Source: Chloroflexota bacterium
GTDB lineage: Bacteria > Chloroflexota > Limnocylindria > Limnocylindrales > CSP1-4
Length of the DNA stretch: 49,936 bases
Reading direction: 5' to 3'
NCBI GenBank assembly: GCA_039933295.1
Contig: JBDTOJ010000202.1
Span: 1 to 49,936 of the forward strand
The notes below the pieces were generated by a model. It ran no database searches, was not told the origin of the DNA, and was given only the letters and a program-made list of their open reading frames with translations. Shown here in pieces: positions 8,539 through 15,619 of this stretch (the stretch's first letter is position 1; every line of letters starts with the position of its first letter). The position numbers were made by a program, and so were the translations under genes.

Positions 8539-9177
8539 TTGGAACACGTCACTCGGGTGATCGGTCCGGTCGGCACGAACGTCCACCTCCTGGCCGACGA
8601 GCGAAGTCGCGAGGCAATCGCGATCGACACGGCGATCCCGTCCCTCGCCTGGATTACCGATACCCTGCGCCAGCGAAACTGGACCCTGAAGCTGATCGTG
8701 ACGACCCACGGCCACTGGGATCACTTCGGAGACAACGCAGCGGTGGCAGACGAGACCGGCGCTTCGATCGCCGTGCACGCGCTCGATGCGCATCGGCTCA
8801 CCGACCCGCAGCCGCTCTGGGCGCCGTTCGAGATCCCGCCCTGTGTTCCCGCGGTGGATCTGGCCGAAGGTGGCGAGATCAGGTTCGGCGAGATCCGGCT
8901 CACCGTGCTCCATACGCCGGGTCACACGGAAGGCTCGGTCTGTCTCTGGTCCGCGGATGAGGGGCAGCTCTTCAGCGGCGACACCTTGTTCGCGGGCGGG
9001 TGGGGAAGGGTCGACCTCCCGGGAGCTTCGCCGGAGCTGATGGTTGAATCGCTCGCTCGACTCGCAACGTTCGAAGATCCGCTGACGGTCCATCCCGGCC
9101 ATGGCCGATCGACGACGATCGGAGCCGAGCGGCCGTGGCTCGAGATGGTCGCGCGCGAGCGTCGCCTGCCGCTCTAG
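8539..9177 (+). CDS. MBL-fold metallo-hydrolase (glyoxalase II-like)
   Basis: THGHWDH, HTPGHT, FSGDTLF and PGHG motifs. Confidence 0.92.
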   Translation: MEHVTRVIGPVGTNVHLLADERSREAIAIDTAIPSLAWITDTLRQRNWTLKLIVTTHGHWDHFGDNAAVADETGASIAVHALDAHRLTDPQPLWAPFEIPPCVPAVDLAEGGEIRFGEIRLTVLHTPGHTEGSVCLWSADEGQLFSGDTLFAGGWGRVDLPGASPELMVESLARLATFEDPLTVHPGHGRSTTIGAERPWLEMVARERRLPL

Positions 9178-10223
9178 CTCCCGGTCGCTTCGGGCGCTGG
9201 CACGACGATTGCCTTTCGATAGTTCGCCCCGGTCTTGAGTCGGGTAAAGCCCACGGATTCGTACAACTGAACGGCGCCGGTGAGATTCTCGGCATCGGCA
9301 CCCAGCGCCGCCTCGGCCAGGCCAAGGTCTCGCAAACGGAGCAGCGAGCGTGCAATCAGGGCCGCAGCGAGACCGCGCCTCCGCCACGGCCTCCGAACCG
9401 AAATGTGCTCGAGCCATCCTCGGCTCACGCCCAGTCGCGCGTTCTCATTGGCATAGACGAAGTTCATGACGGATCCCGCCACTTCGTCGCCATCCCACGC
9501 AACCACCCAGAGCGACGTGTCGATGTCTGGATCCGCAAACCAGTGGGCGAAGTCCTCTTCGGTTCGAACCGTCGGGTCGCGGTGATCCTGGAATGCCTCT
9601 TCGTCGGCATCCCATATGGCCCGGTGGTCCTCCGGGCGGACCGGGCGGACCTCGATGCCATCGGGTAGTGGAGTCTCGGACATGGGCTCGGCCAATGGGC
9701 GAATCATGACAATCCCGTACCCGTTGATGTGGTAGCCGGCTCGCGTCGCAAGCTCCCGCGTTCCTCCTATCTCCACACCCGCCCAGCAGGACAGTACATG
9801 GGGCATGTTCGGCGGGCCCATCGTGCCCGATGACAGGCCGGTCATCACTCGCGACTCAGCCCAGGCGAGCAACGCTCGACCGAGCCCTCGACGACGGAAC
9901 TCCGGCCGGACCCAGAGCTCGACCGAATGGAAGACCCGGTCCGTGCGCACGCGCCAGCTGACCTGTGCCGCGCCGATCAGCGATCCGTCCACCTCCGCGA
10001 GCACGATATCCTCCGTTGGTGACATGCCTGCGGTGTGCTCGAAATCGTTGCGCAGCGATGCCTCGGTGGGGATCAAGTCGTCGTTGTCGTGCACATTGAC
10101 ATCCGCGATCAATGCGGCGAGTGGCCCCACGTCCCGTGCGAGATCGAGATGCCGGATCTGGAGCCCGTTCAGTGACGGAAAGCCGGACAGGTTGGTGATC
10201 TCCTGCGGACCGAGTGGTGTCAT
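9174..10223 (-). CDS. Tandem-domain GNAT acetyltransferase
   Basis: Two acetyl-CoA motifs, VRPEFRRRGLG and VRRPWRRRGLA. Confidence 0.88.
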   Translation of the reverse strand: MTPLGPQEITNLSGFPSLNGLQIRHLDLARDVGPLAALIADVNVHDNDDLIPTEASLRNDFEHTAGMSPTEDIVLAEVDGSLIGAAQVSWRVRTDRVFHSVELWVRPEFRRRGLGRALLAWAESRVMTGLSSGTMGPPNMPHVLSCWAGVEIGGTRELATRAGYHINGYGIVMIRPLAEPMSETPLPDGIEVRPVRPEDHRAIWDADEEAFQDHRDPTVRTEEDFAHWFADPDIDTSLWVVAWDGDEVAGSVMNFVYANENARLGVSRGWLEHISVRRPWRRRGLAAALIARSLLRLRDLGLAEAALGADAENLTGAVQLYESVGFTRLKTGANYRKAIVVPAPEATGS

Positions 10224-11311
10224 CGCTCATCTCCATATTTCTCGCGCATGTGGCGGCTGACGCTCTTCGAGATCACCGTCCACTTGCGGCGATCTGCCTG
10301 CCGAGCCACGACACTGTTGGCCAGCTCGGATCGGCGCGCCTCCTTCTGCAGATGCTCGAAGGCCTTGAAGCGGTCTGGATCGAGCGTGCCCTCGGCCAGG
10401 GCGGCGCGGATCGCGCAGCCCGGTTCCGAGTCGTGGCCGCAATCGCTGAATCGGCAGCCATGGGCCACCTGCTCGATGTCGTCGAACGCATTGGCGAGGC
10501 CGGCGCCATCGAGGAGGGCCAGCTGGCGCATGCCCGGGGTGTCGATGATCAGGCCGGATGCCAGCGGGACGAGCTGGCGACGGGTGGTGGTGTGGTGGCC
10601 GCGCGCATCGTCTTCGCGGATGCCGGAGGTCGTCATCAGCTCCTCGCCGGCGAGCGCGTTGACGAGCGTTGACTTGCCGACGCCCGACGATCCGATGAAC
10701 GCAACGGTCCGGCCCGGGCTGAGGTGCGCCCGGATGTCGTCGATCCCTTCGCCGGCAAGCGCCGAGGTCACGATCACTTCGACCCCCGGGGCCACGCTCT
10801 CGACCATTGCGCGGTGGCCGTCCCGATCGTCGTCCAGGTCGGCCTTGGAGAGAACGACCACGGGGGTCGCGCCAGACTCCCAGGCGATCGCCAGGTAGCG
10901 TTCGACGCGACGAAGGTTGAGCTCGTCGTTCAGTGAACTGACGATGAACACGATATCCACGTTCGCGGCAATGATCTGGGCGACCGTCCGGTGATCGGTC
11001 GGAGCGCGCCGGACGATCACGGTTCGACGCGTCAGGACCGCGTGGATCGTCGCTCGCTCGCCGGCTGGGGCCTGTCCAAGGGCAACCCAGTCGCCGACGG
11101 CCGGAAAGGCCAGGGCATCACCGTTGGAGTCATGCCGCAGCCGCCCCGAGACATACGCCGGCCGCGGCTTCTCGCCATCGTGAACGATGAAGGCGCCGCG
11201 CTCCTCGGCCACAACGCGTGCCGGAACGTGACCGGCGGCGGCATGGACGCCGAACGTGTCCGCGAATGTCGCGTCCCAGCCGATGGCCGCAAGGGCGGTC
11301 GCGCTGGTCAC
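10220..11311 (-). CDS. rsgA: Ribosome small subunit-dependent GTPase A
   Basis: Circularly permuted GTPase: SKAD, GSSGVGKST, HTTT, DTPG, and the Zn finger CRFSDCGHDSEPGC. Confidence 0.95.
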   Translation of the reverse strand: MTSATALAAIGWDATFADTFGVHAAAGHVPARVVAEERGAFIVHDGEKPRPAYVSGRLRHDSNGDALAFPAVGDWVALGQAPAGERATIHAVLTRRTVIVRRAPTDHRTVAQIIAANVDIVFIVSSLNDELNLRRVERYLAIAWESGATPVVVLSKADLDDDRDGHRAMVESVAPGVEVIVTSALAGEGIDDIRAHLSPGRTVAFIGSSGVGKSTLVNALAGEELMTTSGIREDDARGHHTTTRRQLVPLASGLIIDTPGMRQLALLDGAGLANAFDDIEQVAHGCRFSDCGHDSEPGCAIRAALAEGTLDPDRFKAFEHLQKEARRSELANSVVARQADRRKWTVISKSVSRHMREKYGDER

Positions 11312-12336
11312 GACGTCGTTACCGTGTCGAGATTTCCTGCCGGCCTCGGGAGTCGGCTGCGCAACTCGTACTCGAACATCTCACTGACGACCCGGAATCC
11401 GAGGTCTTCGTAGAGGGTCTGCGCTTCATTCGGATTCTGCGTATCGACACCGAGGCCCGCGCGCGTGGCTCCTGCATCGCGAACCGCCCGCAGGCTTGCC
11501 GCGAGCAACGCCCGCGCCAGCCCTCGACGGCGATACTCGGGCTGCACCGAGATCGCCTCGGTCATCCCGAGTCGCGTCCCATCGTCGTCGGCCTCGTCCA
11601 TGAAGTTCAGGATCTGTCCTGCGATCGTCTCGCCGTCGAATGCCACGCGCCACAGTGATGGGTTGAAGATCGGGGCATTGATGAACGCGTCAAAGAGGGC
11701 CTCCGAGGTCGCTTCCTGGCCATAGGAACCGGCGAACGCCCGAGCATCGGCTTCGAAGACCCGGCGATGCATCGCCCGATCCTGCGGGTCGATCGGTCGG
11801 ATCTCGAAGGGGGAGGGCATTGGGAGATCGGGGATGTCATCAAGGGCTGGTCGGATCAGCTGCGCGAAACGTCGGGTGAGGACGAACCCGCGTGCTTCGA
11901 GGCGCTGCCGCTGTTCAGGGTCCGTTCCCGTGGCGAAACCCATGACCCGCGTGGTCTGGGTCCGGTCGGCGGCCGCGACGAGGACCGATGCCCGCCGGAG
12001 CGCCTGGTCCAGCAGGAGCTCCTCGATGCCGATCCCTCGAAGGCCCGGATCGACGTTCATGACGCAGTCCACCTGACCGGTGCCGTCGGCCATCGGTTGC
12101 CACGACGTTCGGCCATACGCGACGACGCGACCGTCGAGTTCGACGAGCGCACAGTCACGGGGCAGATCGGCATGCTCGAGGTGCCCGTAGTAGTTGTCCA
12201 TGTCGGCCACGGTGCCGTAGTCGGGATCGCCGTTGGACGCCCGCACGGCGTTCGCGACGTCATTCATGGCGGGGTGATCCTCCGGGCCGCGATAGGCCCG
12301 GAGGAGGAGATTCGGATTCGCGAGCTTCGGATCCAT
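11308..12336 (-). CDS. Tandem-domain GNAT acetyltransferase (paralog of 9174-10223)
   Basis: VDPGLRGIGI and VQPEYRRRGLA motifs. Alternative TTG start at 12345. Confidence 0.87.
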   Translation of the reverse strand: MDPKLANPNLLLRAYRGPEDHPAMNDVANAVRASNGDPDYGTVADMDNYYGHLEHADLPRDCALVELDGRVVAYGRTSWQPMADGTGQVDCVMNVDPGLRGIGIEELLLDQALRRASVLVAAADRTQTTRVMGFATGTDPEQRQRLEARGFVLTRRFAQLIRPALDDIPDLPMPSPFEIRPIDPQDRAMHRRVFEADARAFAGSYGQEATSEALFDAFINAPIFNPSLWRVAFDGETIAGQILNFMDEADDDGTRLGMTEAISVQPEYRRRGLARALLAASLRAVRDAGATRAGLGVDTQNPNEAQTLYEDLGFRVVSEMFEYELRSRLPRPAGNLDTVTTS

Positions 12337-12337
12337 G

Positions 12338-13141
12338 TCAGCCAACTCGCTTCAACTTGCCGGTCCGCTTGGCGTACTTCTCGGCTCGGCCGAAGGCCCA
12401 CAGCCCTACCGGGATCATGATGATTCCCATGACCACGAGCGGCCACGCATCGCCCAGGAGATCGCCGACGGGCACGCCGTCGATCAGGCCGCGGCGGACG
12501 CCGTCGATGGCATACGTCGCGGGAGACAGGCGCGAGATCACTTGCATCCAGCCCGGCAGGATGTCGACGGAGTAGTAGACGCCACTGACAAGCAGCAGCA
12601 CGGATTGCAGGACGAACGTCATCTGCGCGCCTCGCTCCACGTACAAGAGCGGCAGGATCGCGGCGAGCATCGCGATCCCGACGAAGCTGAACGAGCCGAG
12701 GACCATGAACACGACGACCGTGAGCGGGTTGGCGTTCGCGGCAGCCAGGTCCGGGAAGAACAGCAGCATGGCGATCAGGATCGCGATCGTGTGGATCACG
12801 CCGTAGCCCATTGCGTAGGCCACCGAGCCCAGGAGCTGGGTGGACCGATGAACGGGCGCCATCATCGTGTACTCGAGCGTGCCCTCCCAGCGCTCCACCG
12901 CGATCGTTTCGGCGATCCAGCTGAACACGACCGAAAGGTAGTTCCAGAAGATCGCCCCGACGATCAGGGTGAGGAGCAGCCGGGGATTGCCCGACTCAGC
13001 GCCGATGAGCGAGATCGAGAGGGCGCCCGCGGCCGAGTAGACCAGGAACGCGACCTCCCAGCCCCAGTAGCGCCGGGTCAGGAAGAAGTTTCGTTCGATG
13101 AAGGCATACGAAGCCTTGAGTTCGTGTGTCAGGAGCGTCAT
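12338..13141 (-). CDS. ABC-2 type exporter permease
   Basis: About six hydrophobic segments, ERWEGTLEY motif, SGVYY...LPGW. GAAAGG ribosome-binding site before ATG 13141. Confidence 0.9.
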   Translation of the reverse strand: MTLLTHELKASYAFIERNFFLTRRYWGWEVAFLVYSAAGALSISLIGAESGNPRLLLTLIVGAIFWNYLSVVFSWIAETIAVERWEGTLEYTMMAPVHRSTQLLGSVAYAMGYGVIHTIAILIAMLLFFPDLAAANANPLTVVVFMVLGSFSFVGIAMLAAILPLLYVERGAQMTFVLQSVLLLVSGVYYSVDILPGWMQVISRLSPATYAIDGVRRGLIDGVPVGDLLGDAWPLVVMGIIMIPVGLWAFGRAEKYAKRTGKLKRVG

Positions 13142-13178
13142 CGGACGTGCCTTTCGAGGTTGGTACCTGCCCGGCCCC

Positions 13179-13382
13179 TCAGCGGGACCGGGCAGGACGG
13201 AGGTTCGGCTCCGCTTCGAGCCGCTCACCGAGCTGGATCAGCTGGCGGGCTGCGCGGAGGCGGAGCGGTAGACGGTGGCGGCGCCGAGCCTGATCGGCCA
13301 GGCGCGCCTCCGTGGCGTAGCGGTGTTCGCGAGCGATCCGATCGTTCACGAGCCGCAGCCGGATGTCGGCGTTGCGAAGCAT
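13179..13382 (-). CDS. Small basic helical protein of unknown function (67 aa)
   Basis: Strong GAAAGGA ribosome-binding site. Fills the gap between the ATPase and permease genes on the same strand. Confidence 0.65.
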   Translation of the reverse strand: MLRNADIRLRLVNDRIAREHRYATEARLADQARRRHRLPLRLRAARQLIQLGERLEAEPNLRPARSR

Positions 13383-13396
13383 GGTGGTTCCTTTCG

Positions 13397-14299
13397 TCAG
13401 TCGGCCCCGTCGGCCGGGTCGGCGGCGTCATCCTCGACATCGTCGTCGAGGGATCGGCCGGTGTAGGTCATGAACACGTTGTGGAGCGTCGGCTCCTGGC
13501 CGTGGGCCTCAGCGACGAGTCGCTTCAACCCTGCCGGGGTGTCAAGGGCGACAACACGCCCATCGTTGAGGACGGCGATCCGATCGCACAAACGGTCCGC
13601 CTCCTCGAGGTCGTGGGTCGTGAGCACGATGGATGTGTCGTGGTTTGTCCGGACATCCTCGATGAATGCCTGGACATCGAGCTTCGACCGAGGGTCGAGG
13701 CCGGTCGTCGGTTCATCGAGCAGCAGGAGCGTCGGGCTGGTCAGGAGGGCGCGTGCGATGGCGACCTTCTGTTGCATCCCTCGGCTCATCTGCTCGACCG
13801 GTCGATCAATGCGCTTGCGCGCGATGCCGAGCCGTTCGAGGATCTCGATCGCCTCACGGCGGGCCCGTCCCGCATCCAGGCCATACAGCCGGGCTGCGAA
13901 GAGCAGGTTCTCCATCGGGCTGAGCTTCTTGAAGAAGGCGGCATCGACGCTGACGCGGTTGATGAGCCGTTTGACGGCCATCTCCTCGCGCTGCAGGTCA
14001 TGCCCGAACACCTCGACCCGACCTTCATCGAGCGTGAGGAGACCGGAAATGAGCCGGATGAGCGTTGACTTGCCCGAACCGTTCGCCCCCAGGATTCCGA
14101 CGATCCCGCCCCGCTCAAGGCGGAGGGAGACATCGACGATCGCAAGGACGGGACGCTTCGAACGGCCCACATGGAACCGCTTGGTCACTCCCTCGACGAG
14201 GAGGGCGGGAACGGCGATCTCACTACCTTCGGCCCGAGCCTCGACGGCCAGGCGATCCGGAGCAACTGTCTTCGATTGTCCGAGTAGCGTGGCTGCCAT
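13397..14299 (-). CDS. ABC exporter ATP-binding protein (DrrA/NodI-like)
   Basis: Walker A GANGSGKST, signature MSRGMQQK, LLLDEPTTGLD, and H-loop TTHDLEEA. Confidence 0.93.
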   Translation of the reverse strand: MAATLLGQSKTVAPDRLAVEARAEGSEIAVPALLVEGVTKRFHVGRSKRPVLAIVDVSLRLERGGIVGILGANGSGKSTLIRLISGLLTLDEGRVEVFGHDLQREEMAVKRLINRVSVDAAFFKKLSPMENLLFAARLYGLDAGRARREAIEILERLGIARKRIDRPVEQMSRGMQQKVAIARALLTSPTLLLLDEPTTGLDPRSKLDVQAFIEDVRTNHDTSIVLTTHDLEEADRLCDRIAVLNDGRVVALDTPAGLKRLVAEAHGQEPTLHNVFMTYTGRSLDDDVEDDAADPADGAD

Positions 14300-14472
14300 G
14301 GTGGTTGGTCCTCTGTCTGGCGGATCGCCGGGAGGCGGTACCGCCCGGTGGCTGAGATGCCTGAATGCGGTGTTTCGGGTCCCCGACACTGCATGAGCCG
14401 TGACCCGATCCCCGTGCCTTCGCATCGGGTGGGCTCACGGCTCACGGATGGCCTCGACGTCTCGAGAGCATC

Positions 14473-14506
14473 AAAAAAGCCGGGGGCCCGATCTGGCCCA
14501 CGGCTC
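14473..14506 (-). terminator. Intrinsic terminator inside the 5' leader of the ABC operon
   Basis: Minus strand GAGCCG-T-GGGCC-AGATCG-GGCCC-C-CGGC followed by TTTTTT. Confidence 0.8.
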
Positions 14507-14543
14507 GTGGTGTCGTTGGTGGAGCGGTACTACCGCCCGACAA

Positions 14544-14627
14544 CTACCTCGAGGAAGGCGCAGATCTCCCGCGATCAGCGGCGCCGACGGGCGCGATCGT
14601 GGGCACGAAGAGGAACATCTTGTTCAT
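14544..14627 (-). CDS. Putative leader peptide MNKMFLFVPTIAPVGAADRGRSAPSSR (27 aa)
   Basis: GGAGGG ribosome-binding site 9 nt before the ATG. Lies between a sigma70-type promoter and an intrinsic terminator. Confidence 0.6.
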   Translation of the reverse strand: MNKMFLFVPTIAPVGAADRGRSAPSSR

Positions 14628-14681
14628 CTTTGGCCGCCCTCCGTACAGGTGCTGTCGGCGCGGAACCCGCGTCGGTCGCGG

Positions 14682-14711
14682 AGTGTAGGCGTCCGCCCCC
14701 GGCGATGTCAA
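14682..14711 (-). promoter_or_regulatory. Sigma70-type promoter TTGACA-N18-TACACT for the leader/ABC operon
   Basis: Read directly on the minus strand. The -35 overlaps the sulfurtransferase stop codon. Confidence 0.7.
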
Positions 14712-15619
14712 CTACCGGGCGCGCGTCCGGGTTCTTGCCCGACGACAACGGGCTCGCCGGCCGTCGACCAGTCGCTGTAACTGCCGGGGTAGAGGATCGG
14801 GCTGGGGAGTCCGGCGATGCGCATTGCCAGGGCGTTGTGGCAGGCCGATACGCCACTTCCGCAGGACGTGACCATTGACCGTGCGGGCTCCGCGGCGTCA
14901 CCGAAGCCGTTCGCGGCGGCTTCGAGGCGGAGTGCACCGAAGCGGTCGGCGAGTGCTGAGGGCTGGAGAAATCGACCATCCGTCCCGAGGTTGCCGTCGA
15001 CCGGCGCGTTCAGGGCCGTGGGGATGTGCCCCGGCGTCGGATCAATCGGCTCGATCTCACCGCGATATCGCGGTCCTGCCCGTGCATCGAGAAGGACAAC
15101 CGTGCCGAGCTGCGTGGTCAGTTTCGCTCGATCGACCACCCGACCCCAGCTCGACCGCAGGTGGAGCATTGCTGGGGGCGGGTCATGAGGCTCGATGGAC
15201 AACGCCCGTCCCTCCGCCAGCCAGGCCTGGATGCCGCCGTCGAGGACTGCCGAGCCGCCGCCTGCGCTCCCGTCTCCGAAACCCAGGTCGTCGAGCATCC
15301 ACCAGAGGCGGGCAGCCACCCACCCGCCGACATCGTCGTAGATCACCACGAGGTCATCGTTGCCGACGCCACGGCGGCCCATGGTCGCGACGAATACCGA
15401 CGGATCGGGGAGTGGATGCCGCCCCGGACCTGAGGTGGCCACGAGATCCGTATCGAGATCAACGTGGATGGCGCCGGGAATGTGGCCCTTCTCGAACGCC
15501 GCGCGACCCGTTCCGATCGGCTGCCCGAGATACCAACGGGCGTCCACGACCCGAAGATCCTTGCGGCCGGCGTCAATCCATTCCGCCAGTTCGGCGGTGG
15601 AAACGAGAGGCTGATGCAT
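14708..15619 (-). CDS. sseA: Sulfurtransferase (tandem rhodanese, SseA-like)
   Basis: GHIPGA, GRHPLP, VVIYDD...AARLWW, CGSGVSAC and YPGSYSDW. Confidence 0.92.
   Translation of the reverse strand: MHQPLVSTAELAEWIDAGRKDLRVVDARWYLGQPIGTGRAAFEKGHIPGAIHVDLDTDLVATSGPGRHPLPDPSVFVATMGRRGVGNDDLVVIYDDVGGWVAARLWWMLDDLGFGDGSAGGGSAVLDGGIQAWLAEGRALSIEPHDPPPAMLHLRSSWGRVVDRAKLTTQLGTVVLLDARAGPRYRGEIEPIDPTPGHIPTALNAPVDGNLGTDGRFLQPSALADRFGALRLEAAANGFGDAAEPARSMVTSCGSGVSACHNALAMRIAGLPSPILYPGSYSDWSTAGEPVVVGQEPGRAPGS

Follow-up and report, generated by a model that had tools for sequence, protein, structure and literature searches.

A probable ribosome-mediated transcription attenuator ahead of an exporter operon in Limnocylindria (Chloroflexota)

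The stretch of DNA analysed here (hereafter the window) spans 49,936 nucleotides (nt) of a Chloroflexota bacterium of the class Limnocylindria (contig JBDTOJ010000202.1, assembly GCA_039933295.1) and carries a leader RNA ahead of an operon encoding an ATP-binding cassette (ABC) exporter, GNAT acetyltransferases and the ribosome GTPase RsgA. This leader is probably a ribosome-mediated (leader-peptide) transcription attenuator of the exporter operon, as the original prediction, made from the letters of the window, had proposed. Computation established the anatomy of the leader, its conservation, covariation within two mutually exclusive folds, a coding signature in its short upstream open reading frame (uORF) and its linkage to the exporter genes. 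What we infer is the dependence on translation, the identity of the inducers and the part the operon plays in resistance or ribosome care. All coordinates are those of the window, and both leader and operon lie on its minus strand (Table 1).

The leader combines the features that define this class of attenuator: a short ORF with a Shine-Dalgarno (SD) sequence near a promoter, an intrinsic terminator between that ORF and the structural genes, and an antiterminator that overlaps the ORF and has one strand in common with the terminator. The promoter, the GGAGGG ribosome-binding site, the 27-codon ORF, the hairpin and the GC-rich terminator with its U6 tract were each found where they had been predicted. 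Within 1.2 kb, the sole promoter-like site was TTGACA-N18-TACACT, compared with 0.1 sites in shuffled sequences, and transcription would start near position 14675, about 7 nt past TACACT. The terminator consists of a 10-bp stem with one U·C mismatch and a 6-nt loop (-20.8 kcal/mol). Folding of the 381-nt leader was well below that of shuffled sequences (z = -4.3); as the whole arrangement is also kept across a bacterial class, it is far beyond chance. The ORF listing stretches the frame of the ABC ATPase to an ATG at 14425, but orthologues instead support ATG 14299 as the true start, with a conserved M[AT]ATLL N-terminus and an SD sequence ahead of it. This puts the U-tract 173 nt ahead of the first structural gene, close to the 175 nt originally estimated.

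Covariation across orthologous leaders supports both the terminator and an antiterminator formed by the 3' end of the uORF. Within the genus, the last third of the uORF (GAUCGCGGGAGAUCUGYGCC..UCGAGGUAG) and ACCACGAGCCGUGGGCCAGAUCGGGCC are near-invariant, synonymous sites included. Unprompted, RNAalifold paired AUCUG.GCCY.C.UCG.GGU in the uORF with ACC.CGA..G.GGGCCAGAU in the terminator region (14565-14546 with 14511-14491), enclosing hairpin P3. The 5' strand of this antiterminator begins 62 nt after the A of the ATG. As it is built from the 5' arm and loop of the terminator, the antiterminator excludes the terminator. P3 is compatible with both states and was paired in 99.6% of cases, with compensatory G-C/C-G swaps.

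In an alignment of 74 sequences, helices 2 and 3 of the antiterminator were 95.8% and 98.4% paired, and every change was wobble-compatible. All 44 representatives gave cognate antiterminator duplexes of between -15 and -26 kcal/mol, on average 3.5 kcal/mol better than non-cognate pairings. When divergent clades were added, the upper helix was 95.6% paired, with compensatory changes in 6 of 10 pairs. Over the whole structure, compensatory changes were found in 20 of 26 pairs on an alignment fitted to the antiterminator, versus 5-8 with slid partners, and none of 500 shuffles reached this count. The terminator itself was paired in 94.7% of cells, with compensatory changes in 4 of 10 pairs (e.g. 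U-A to C-G and G-C to A-U) and no shuffle out of 500 as good.

Joint changes of uORF bases and terminator-loop bases in divergent clades provide the decisive support for the antiterminator. In the window, AUCUG of the uORF faces CAGAU of the terminator strand. Divergent clades have AUCCG with CGGAU, GGUG with CACC or CAUC, UUCC with GGAA, and GUCCA with UGGAC, while a homologue from outside the class has CAUUG with CAAUG. The lower helix behaves similarly, with UCGAGGU and ACCACGA in the window and UCGGCCU and AGGAACCGA in a divergent clade. Terminator-loop bases and uORF codons have no other reason to covary, which argues for pairing between them.

The two folds are predicted to be nearly equal in energy. 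With the antiterminator enforced, the whole leader folded at -114.2 kcal/mol, versus a free minimum of -116.8; the antiterminator with P3 amounted to -22.1 kcal/mol and the terminator with P3 to -25.6. No pairing with the SD sequence of the ABC gene was seen in the leader fold. A different antiterminator had first been suggested, in which GCCCACG of the uORF pairs with CGTGGGC in the 5' arm of the terminator. This complementarity exists in the window, but the duplex is weaker than the conserved antiterminator (-15.9 versus -24.2 kcal/mol), and only 14 of the genus's 30 leaders, which all belong to closer members (L001-L019), retain a complement of 7 nt or more. It was thus rejected as a general antiterminator and may be a lineage-specific auxiliary pairing.

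The uORF on which the original prediction relied is conserved as a translatable frame. An in-frame, SD-linked ORF was present in 75 of 77 leaders in one set and 43 of 44 in another, as well as in two homologues from outside the class (L169 and L171). The distance from the SD sequence (GGAGG or AGGAG) to the start codon was 8-12 nt in all clades. The uORF varied in length from 18 to 36 codons, yet its stop fell at a constant spot in the RNA structure, embedded in the 5' strand of the antiterminator in all clades. Among 77 leaders, collected with a search pattern that fixed only 'TR' at the stop position and left the third base free, the stop codon was TAG in 54, TGA in 14 and TAA in 9. In the variable N-terminal codons, G+C content by codon position was 0.53/0.47/0.885, versus 0.71/0.47/0.79 in the operon genes; the third-position periodicity of the uORF is of the coding type, as in real genes. 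The uORF frame also stays open beyond the stop, through the terminator (14473-14543), in all 77 leaders; the corresponding counts for the alternative frames are 62 and 37. As the stretch is largely conserved in sequence, this count is weak evidence. A sensor based on stop-codon read-through was not adopted, although some effect of such read-through is possible.

The encoded peptide, by comparison, varies. Its N-terminal two thirds change freely in sequence and length (e.g. MNKMFLFVPTI, MTSRLITRRTM, MHRSMFAIHAPRL, MWNDLFIRRMT, MSDRILHMSARVRL, and MTCTLSAPRN), and one clade (L143, L146, L150, L158, and L159) reads the conserved bases GCGGGAGAUCCGUGCCCUUCG in another frame, ending in ..AGDPCPS and the stop. 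The MFLFV of the window had been likened to the IFVI motif on which ErmCL stalls. That resemblance does not extend to its relatives, as other members of the genus have MSQHLLFTRT, MTSRLITRRT, or MKSSTLARRL at this position. An ErmCL-like arrest motif was rejected on this lack of conservation within the genus, the range of lengths and the frame change in one clade. Composition was close to background (Ala 15.9% versus 12.6%; Arg 10.6% versus 8.9%), with no amino acid notably enriched and no run of any single codon in the uORFs. A C-terminal motif, GR[SG][VA]PxSR, is widespread among the leaders. Judged from these comparisons, the conserved object appears to be the RNA bases and not the peptide, and the position of the ribosome would be the signal.

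We propose the following mechanism. A transcript started about 7 nt past TACACT would give a leader of about 200 nt. In the OFF state, a fast ribosome would reach the end of the uORF and cover the 5' strand of the antiterminator while the terminator is being synthesized. The two arms of the terminator would then pair with each other, and transcription would end at the U-tract with release of a leader RNA of about 200 nt. In the ON state, a ribosome delayed or halted before about codon 15 would leave the antiterminator strand free. This strand would capture the 5' arm of the terminator as it emerges, before the 3' arm is made, allowing read-through into the operon (the ABC-2 exporter, a small ORF, a double-GNAT, rsgA, and a second double-GNAT). 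As the peptide is unconserved and no codon is enriched, the signal is most likely a general one, namely any condition that delays the lead ribosome with respect to RNA polymerase. In soil, antibiotics that target the ribosome would be the obvious candidate inducers, and starvation may be another. A sensor of translation status is our preferred form of the translation-stress sensor initially suggested.

The distribution of the leader ties it to the exporter. By BLAST, 39 of the 48 other genomes in the genus contain leader DNA, and the exact composite motif of uORF end and terminator 5' arm is present in 77 species-level genomes. A covariance model of the leader core (R1) matched 253 of 401 genomes of the class Limnocylindria, including 137 of the 177 of high quality, and 51 of its 65 genera. 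The matching contigs come from soil and groundwater metagenome-assembled genomes (MAGs). Wherever enough sequence was available downstream, the leader directly precedes the orthologous ATPase and ABC-2 permease, which are followed by one to three double-GNATs and often rsgA; the gene upstream differs among loci. Family f2, with genomes of about 1.1 Mb, has neither the leader nor an orthologous ATPase, and the same holds for two of three sampled genomes of genus g7 (best matches 38-42% identity in both groups). The third g7 genome has an orthologous ATPase at the start of a contig, where the leader is cut off. Always ahead of the exporter operon, and missing where the orthologous ATPase is missing, the leader is best understood as a cis element of that operon.

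Weak matches outside the class proved to be true homologues of the same architecture in lower-GC Chloroflexota. These diverged leaders (L169 and L170, G490; L171, G470) stand before the same ABC ATPase, at 56-64% identity. They retain the TTGACA -35 element, in a TTGACA-17-TATACT or TATAAT promoter, followed by AGGAGA-ATG, a 30- or 36-codon uORF ending in ..RIVPISR or similar before the stop, and a terminator on the same CCGUGGGC core. L171 carries an extra perfect hairpin on the CCGUGGGC core, between uORF and terminator. Six leader-carrying contigs (L070, L077, L081, L101, L103, and L104) were deposited under other labels (Steroidobacteraceae, Angelobacter, Patescibacteria, Dormiibacterota, Sulfomarinibacteraceae, and Eisenbacteria) and are probably mis-binned or mislabelled MAG contigs.

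The transporter of the operon pairs an ABC-2 type (PF01061) permease with a separate DrrA-like ATPase, which matched the TIGR01188 drrA model at 1.2e-66, below that model's cut-off. Alignments of permease orthologues begin at residues 18-30, so the true start of this gene is likely an internal ATG at about 13141. Between the two lies an arginine-rich ORF of 67 residues that matched no Pfam family; by tblastn, over 20 orthologous loci have it at the corresponding place, with 48-92% identity. Sequence searches of the PDB with both GNATs returned only uncharacterised double-GNAT structures (7q3a and 3tt2), 7q3a, a putative GNAT, being the nearest solved structure to GNAT 1. The rsgA gene is the single RsgA_GTPase match over the cut-off in this 87%-complete genome; with no second copy found there, we rejected the possibility that it is a specialised extra paralogue. 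Some orthologous loci have the operon without rsgA. An exporter, acetyltransferases and a ribosome GTPase together bear a loose resemblance to the types of genes that WhiB7 controls, and a role of the operon in resistance or ribosome care is what this content would suggest.

Upstream, the -35 element overlaps the TGA stop of a rhodanese/3-mercaptopyruvate sulfurtransferase-like gene. Hairpin P0 shows compensatory variants in the alignment (GUGCGG/CCGCAC and GCACGG/CGUGCC) and may contribute to stability of the 5' end. Hairpin H2, within the uORF, was paired in about 80% of alignment cells, with compensatory changes in 5 of 5 pairs, and is possibly a pause or spacing element.

Table 1. Features of the leader, its operon and the upstream neighbour, in order along the minus strand.
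Feature	Position	Strand	Details
Rhodanese/3-mercaptopyruvate sulfurtransferase-like gene	14708-15619	-	upstream neighbour; conserved in closer relatives only
-35 hexamer TTGACA	14706-14711	-	consensus scan; invariant in 30/30 leaders of the genus
-10 hexamer TACACT	14682-14687	-	18-nt spacer to -35; orthologues have TACACT or TAGACT
5'-terminal hairpin P0	14656-14675	-	GCGCGG-GUUC-CGCGC type; alignment and fold
uORF Shine-Dalgarno GGAGGG	14637-14642	-	9 nt before ATG
uORF	14544-14627	-	27 codons + TAG; MNKMFLFVPTIAPVGAADRGRSAPSSR, then stop; ATG 14627, TAG 14546-14544
GCCCACG, antiterminator strand first suggested	14598-14604	-	partner CGTGGGC 14502-14496
Hairpin H2, in uORF	14581-14594	-	GCGCC-CGUC-GGCGC; codons 12-16, 'APxG' region
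Antiterminator 5' strand	14546-14565	-	AUCUGCGCCUUCCUCGAGGU; last eight sense codons + first base of stop
Hairpin P3	14522-14538	-	GGGCGG-UAGUA-CCGCUC; -10.1 kcal/mol; between uORF and terminator
Antiterminator 3' strand	14491-14511	-	ACCACGAGCCGUGGGCCAGAU; spacer, terminator 5' arm, most of terminator loop
Intrinsic terminator	14473-14504	-	GCCGUGGGCC-AGAUCG-GGCCCCCGGC + U6; stem-loop 14504-14479, U6 14478-14473
Hairpin H4	14447-14472	-	directly past U-tract; structure conserved, sequence varies
Long hairpin H5	14393-14445	-	5' arm GAGCCGUGAGCC repeats terminator 5' arm
DrrA-like ABC transporter ATPase	13397-14299	-	first structural gene; Pfam ABC_tran 5.7e-33
Arg-rich small ORF, 67 residues	13179-13382	-	MLRNADIRLRLVNDRIAREHRY...LIQLGERLEAEPNLRPARSR; between ATPase and permease genes
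ABC-2 type permease	12338-13228	-	Pfam ABC2_membrane 1.8e-15
Double-domain GNAT acetyltransferase 1	11308-12345	-	profile search and PDB sequence search
RsgA, 30S-subunit-dependent GTPase	10220-11311	-	Pfam RsgA_GTPase 7.2e-51; TIGR00157 over cut-off
Double-domain GNAT acetyltransferase 2	9174-10223	-	profile search and PDB sequence search

Several other explanations of the leader were weighed. The order of small ORF, leaky terminator, ABC exporter and acetyltransferase resembles that of peptide-antibiotic clusters; microcin C genes are arranged as mccA-terminator-mccBCDE, and MccE carries a GNAT domain. The uORF could thus be a gene for a precursor or exported peptide (a bacteriocin, a ribosomally synthesized and post-translationally modified peptide (RiPP), or one of the microcin C type) handled by the exporter and modified or neutralised by the GNATs, with the terminator merely setting the ratio of peptide mRNA to export-gene mRNA. 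The widespread GR[SG][VA]PxSR motif, and the retention of Arg at position -7 under four codons, would suit such a gene. We nevertheless consider it very unlikely, as the conserved codons at the C-terminus coincide exactly with the antiterminator strand and change in concert with the terminator loop, while the product differs in length, lacks a conserved N-terminus and ends in another reading frame in one clade. Further, no RiPP-type maturation enzyme or peptidase-domain exporter was found among the operon genes.

We also give little credence to a ligand- or protein-binding riboswitch, in which the antiterminator and P3 would form an aptamer or protein site and the ORF would be incidental. Its appeal lies in the very high conservation of unpaired and internal-loop bases (GGGAG and ACCACGAG), and a terminator/antiterminator pair is the usual expression platform of riboswitches. 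However, a search of 2 kb against Rfam 15 (both strands, E up to 10) gave best matches of E = 0.45, to an unrelated small RNA (sRNA), and E = 2.7, far below gathering scores. An incidental ORF would also sit poorly with the presence of an SD-linked frame in every clade despite large shifts in sequence and length, with a stop that always lies in the antiterminator strand while TAG, TGA, and TAA interchange, and with the coding-type periodicity. A mixed mechanism is possible.

The span from promoter to terminator is self-contained, with its own ORF and strong terminator, and could be an independent small gene or sRNA of about 200 nt acting in trans, the ABC operon having its own promoter within the 173-nt spacer. 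RNAs and peptides derived from attenuators can act in trans elsewhere, as is reportedly the case for rnTrpL and peTrpL in Sinorhizobium, and the spacer holds conserved hairpins. This explanation is highly improbable. The only promoter-like site in the scan was the one upstream of the uORF, the unit was never found away from the ABC operon and was lost along with it, and a stand-alone gene would have no use for a covarying antiterminator. The leader may still act in trans as well as in cis. Lastly, an attenuator sensing one amino acid or rare tRNA (trp, his, or whiB7-Ala type) could draw on the near-invariant rare codons AGA, UCU, and AGG and on alanine as the commonest uORF residue (15.9%), but it is extremely improbable and was rejected, as the uORFs lack codon runs and differ little from background in composition, and as the rare codons fall within the antiterminator strand, where pairing explains their bases and stalling would favor termination rather than induction.

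The leader-peptide attenuator that we prefer also has evidence weighing against it. A conserved second module, hairpins H4 and H5, is unexplained by an attenuator model. The count of 20 of 26 covarying pairs leans toward the antiterminator, since the alignment was fitted to that structure, and unfitted alignments gave almost only wobble-compatible changes. An anti-antiterminator, pairing the SD region GGAGGGCG with CGCCUUCC, is predicted in the window; its conservation across leaders was not established, the cognate/non-cognate gap being 2.3 kcal/mol on a large background and the partners inconsistent between clades. Near the C-terminus of the uORF, Arg at -7 is kept under four codons (AGA, CGA, CGC, and CGT) and a Pro is likewise kept. 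This leaves room for some constraint on the peptide itself, and with it for a modest peptide effect on release. Finally, a sole rsgA behind a switch is less expected of an inducible resistance operon, unless RsgA is also made by basal read-through or from internal promoters.

The second module may point to a more elaborate design. Several other clades have a U-rich tail behind H5, which makes this hairpin a possible second terminator, and the 3' arm of the first terminator is complementary to the 5' arm of H5, hinting at a relay. In the window, RNAfold with the antiterminator enforced still preferred H5 itself. We entertain, as a speculative and on balance unlikely reading in four parts, that the leader is the entry point of a factor-free translation-stress regulon in Chloroflexota. 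One sensor of ribosome position, relayed via six pairing segments, may control two tandem terminators; these segments may be the uORF end, the 5' and 3' arms of the terminator, the 5' and 3' arms of H5, and the tail. The R-x-[VA]-P-x-S-R-stop sequence may delay release of the peptide, holding the ribosome over the antiterminator strand. RsgA, the sole 30S-maturation GTPase of the cell, and the tandem-GNATs may be directly controlled by ribosome speed, which, if true, would amount to feedback from elongation rate to ribosome care. The operon may then be not, or not solely, a module for antibiotic efflux.

Comparison with characterized systems places the leader within a known kind of control. 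In the bmrB-bmrCD system of B. subtilis, efficient translation of the leader leads to termination, while translation slowed by lincomycin, chloramphenicol, or erythromycin leads to read-through (PMC4191407). As in bmrB, a translated leader ORF with an intrinsic terminator and antiterminator controls an ABC exporter. There is no sequence homology, and the organisms belong to different phyla (Chloroflexota here, Bacillota there). BmrCD is a heterodimeric type-I ABC exporter, whereas the operon described here encodes an ABC-2 (DrrAB-like) ATPase and permease, GNATs and RsgA. The bmrB terminator lies inside a 53-codon ORF, while the 27-codon uORF of the window stops about 40 nt before the terminator and, unlike in bmrB, its last codons form the antiterminator strand. 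The leader works like the bmrB-bmrCD family without being a member of it.

In mycobacteria, a Rho-independent terminator forms when the whiB7 uORF is translated efficiently, whereas poor translation gives an antiterminator and read-through (10.1101/2023.06.02.543512). As in the whiB7/wblC uORFs of Actinobacteria, length and sequence of the uORF vary by species while the RNA switch is kept, and the output of whiB7, functions that cope with translation stress, is similar in kind to the operon here. WhiB7 is, however, a transcription factor with positive feedback, whereas here effectors would be controlled directly. The whiB7 uORF is also 25-40% alanine (10.1101/2023.06.02.543512), compared with 15.9% here, the sequences are unrelated, and the phylum is different.

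Other leaders share single aspects of this design. In the leaders of ARE ABC-F and related resistance genes (vmlR, msrD, and others), and in those of erm and cat, short ORFs likewise detect antibiotics that act on the ribosome and rearrange the RNA. The Erm and Cat leaders depend on arrest motifs that are specific and drug-dependent, and in most cases they release the SD sequence of a resistance gene (translational attenuation). Unlike ErmCL, ErmBL, and CatA86, the leader described here has no conserved arrest motif and would act through a terminator 173 nt upstream of the gene. With trpL, hisL, and pheL it has in common coupled transcription and translation, a leader ORF, a strand-sharing antiterminator and a ribosome at the stop codon that would mask the antiterminator strand; unlike them, it has no regulatory codon run, its downstream genes are not biosynthetic, and a conserved anti-antiterminator is not established. 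The toiL uORF of E. coli topAI-yjhQ is a sequence-tolerant reporter of multiple translation stresses through the position of a stalled ribosome (PMC12121999). It opens a downstream ribosome-binding site and so prevents Rho-dependent termination, in contrast to the intrinsic terminator/antiterminator pair found here.

Among the results listed by a full-text literature search combining Chloroflexota with leader peptide or transcription attenuation, none mentioned Chloroflexota. The leader family appears to be undescribed and its mechanism to be of a familiar kind: it is a new family within a known kind of control, homologous to neither bmrB nor the whiB7 uORF. Most of the known ribosome-read attenuators of resistance and stress genes are from Bacillota, Actinobacteria, and Proteobacteria. 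The leader described here is a well-supported example from a class of soil Chloroflexota that is abundant and has hardly been cultured; most of the class conserves it, and it is detectable elsewhere in the phylum. The covariance model can be used to annotate Limnocylindria genomes, and the leader offers a natural two-state RNA switch with both folds backed by covariation. For an otherwise anonymous operon, it provides a strong functional hint, namely that more of the products would be wanted when translation falters. Streamlined freshwater relatives have lost both switch and operon, which fits a role in a chemically hostile soil habitat.

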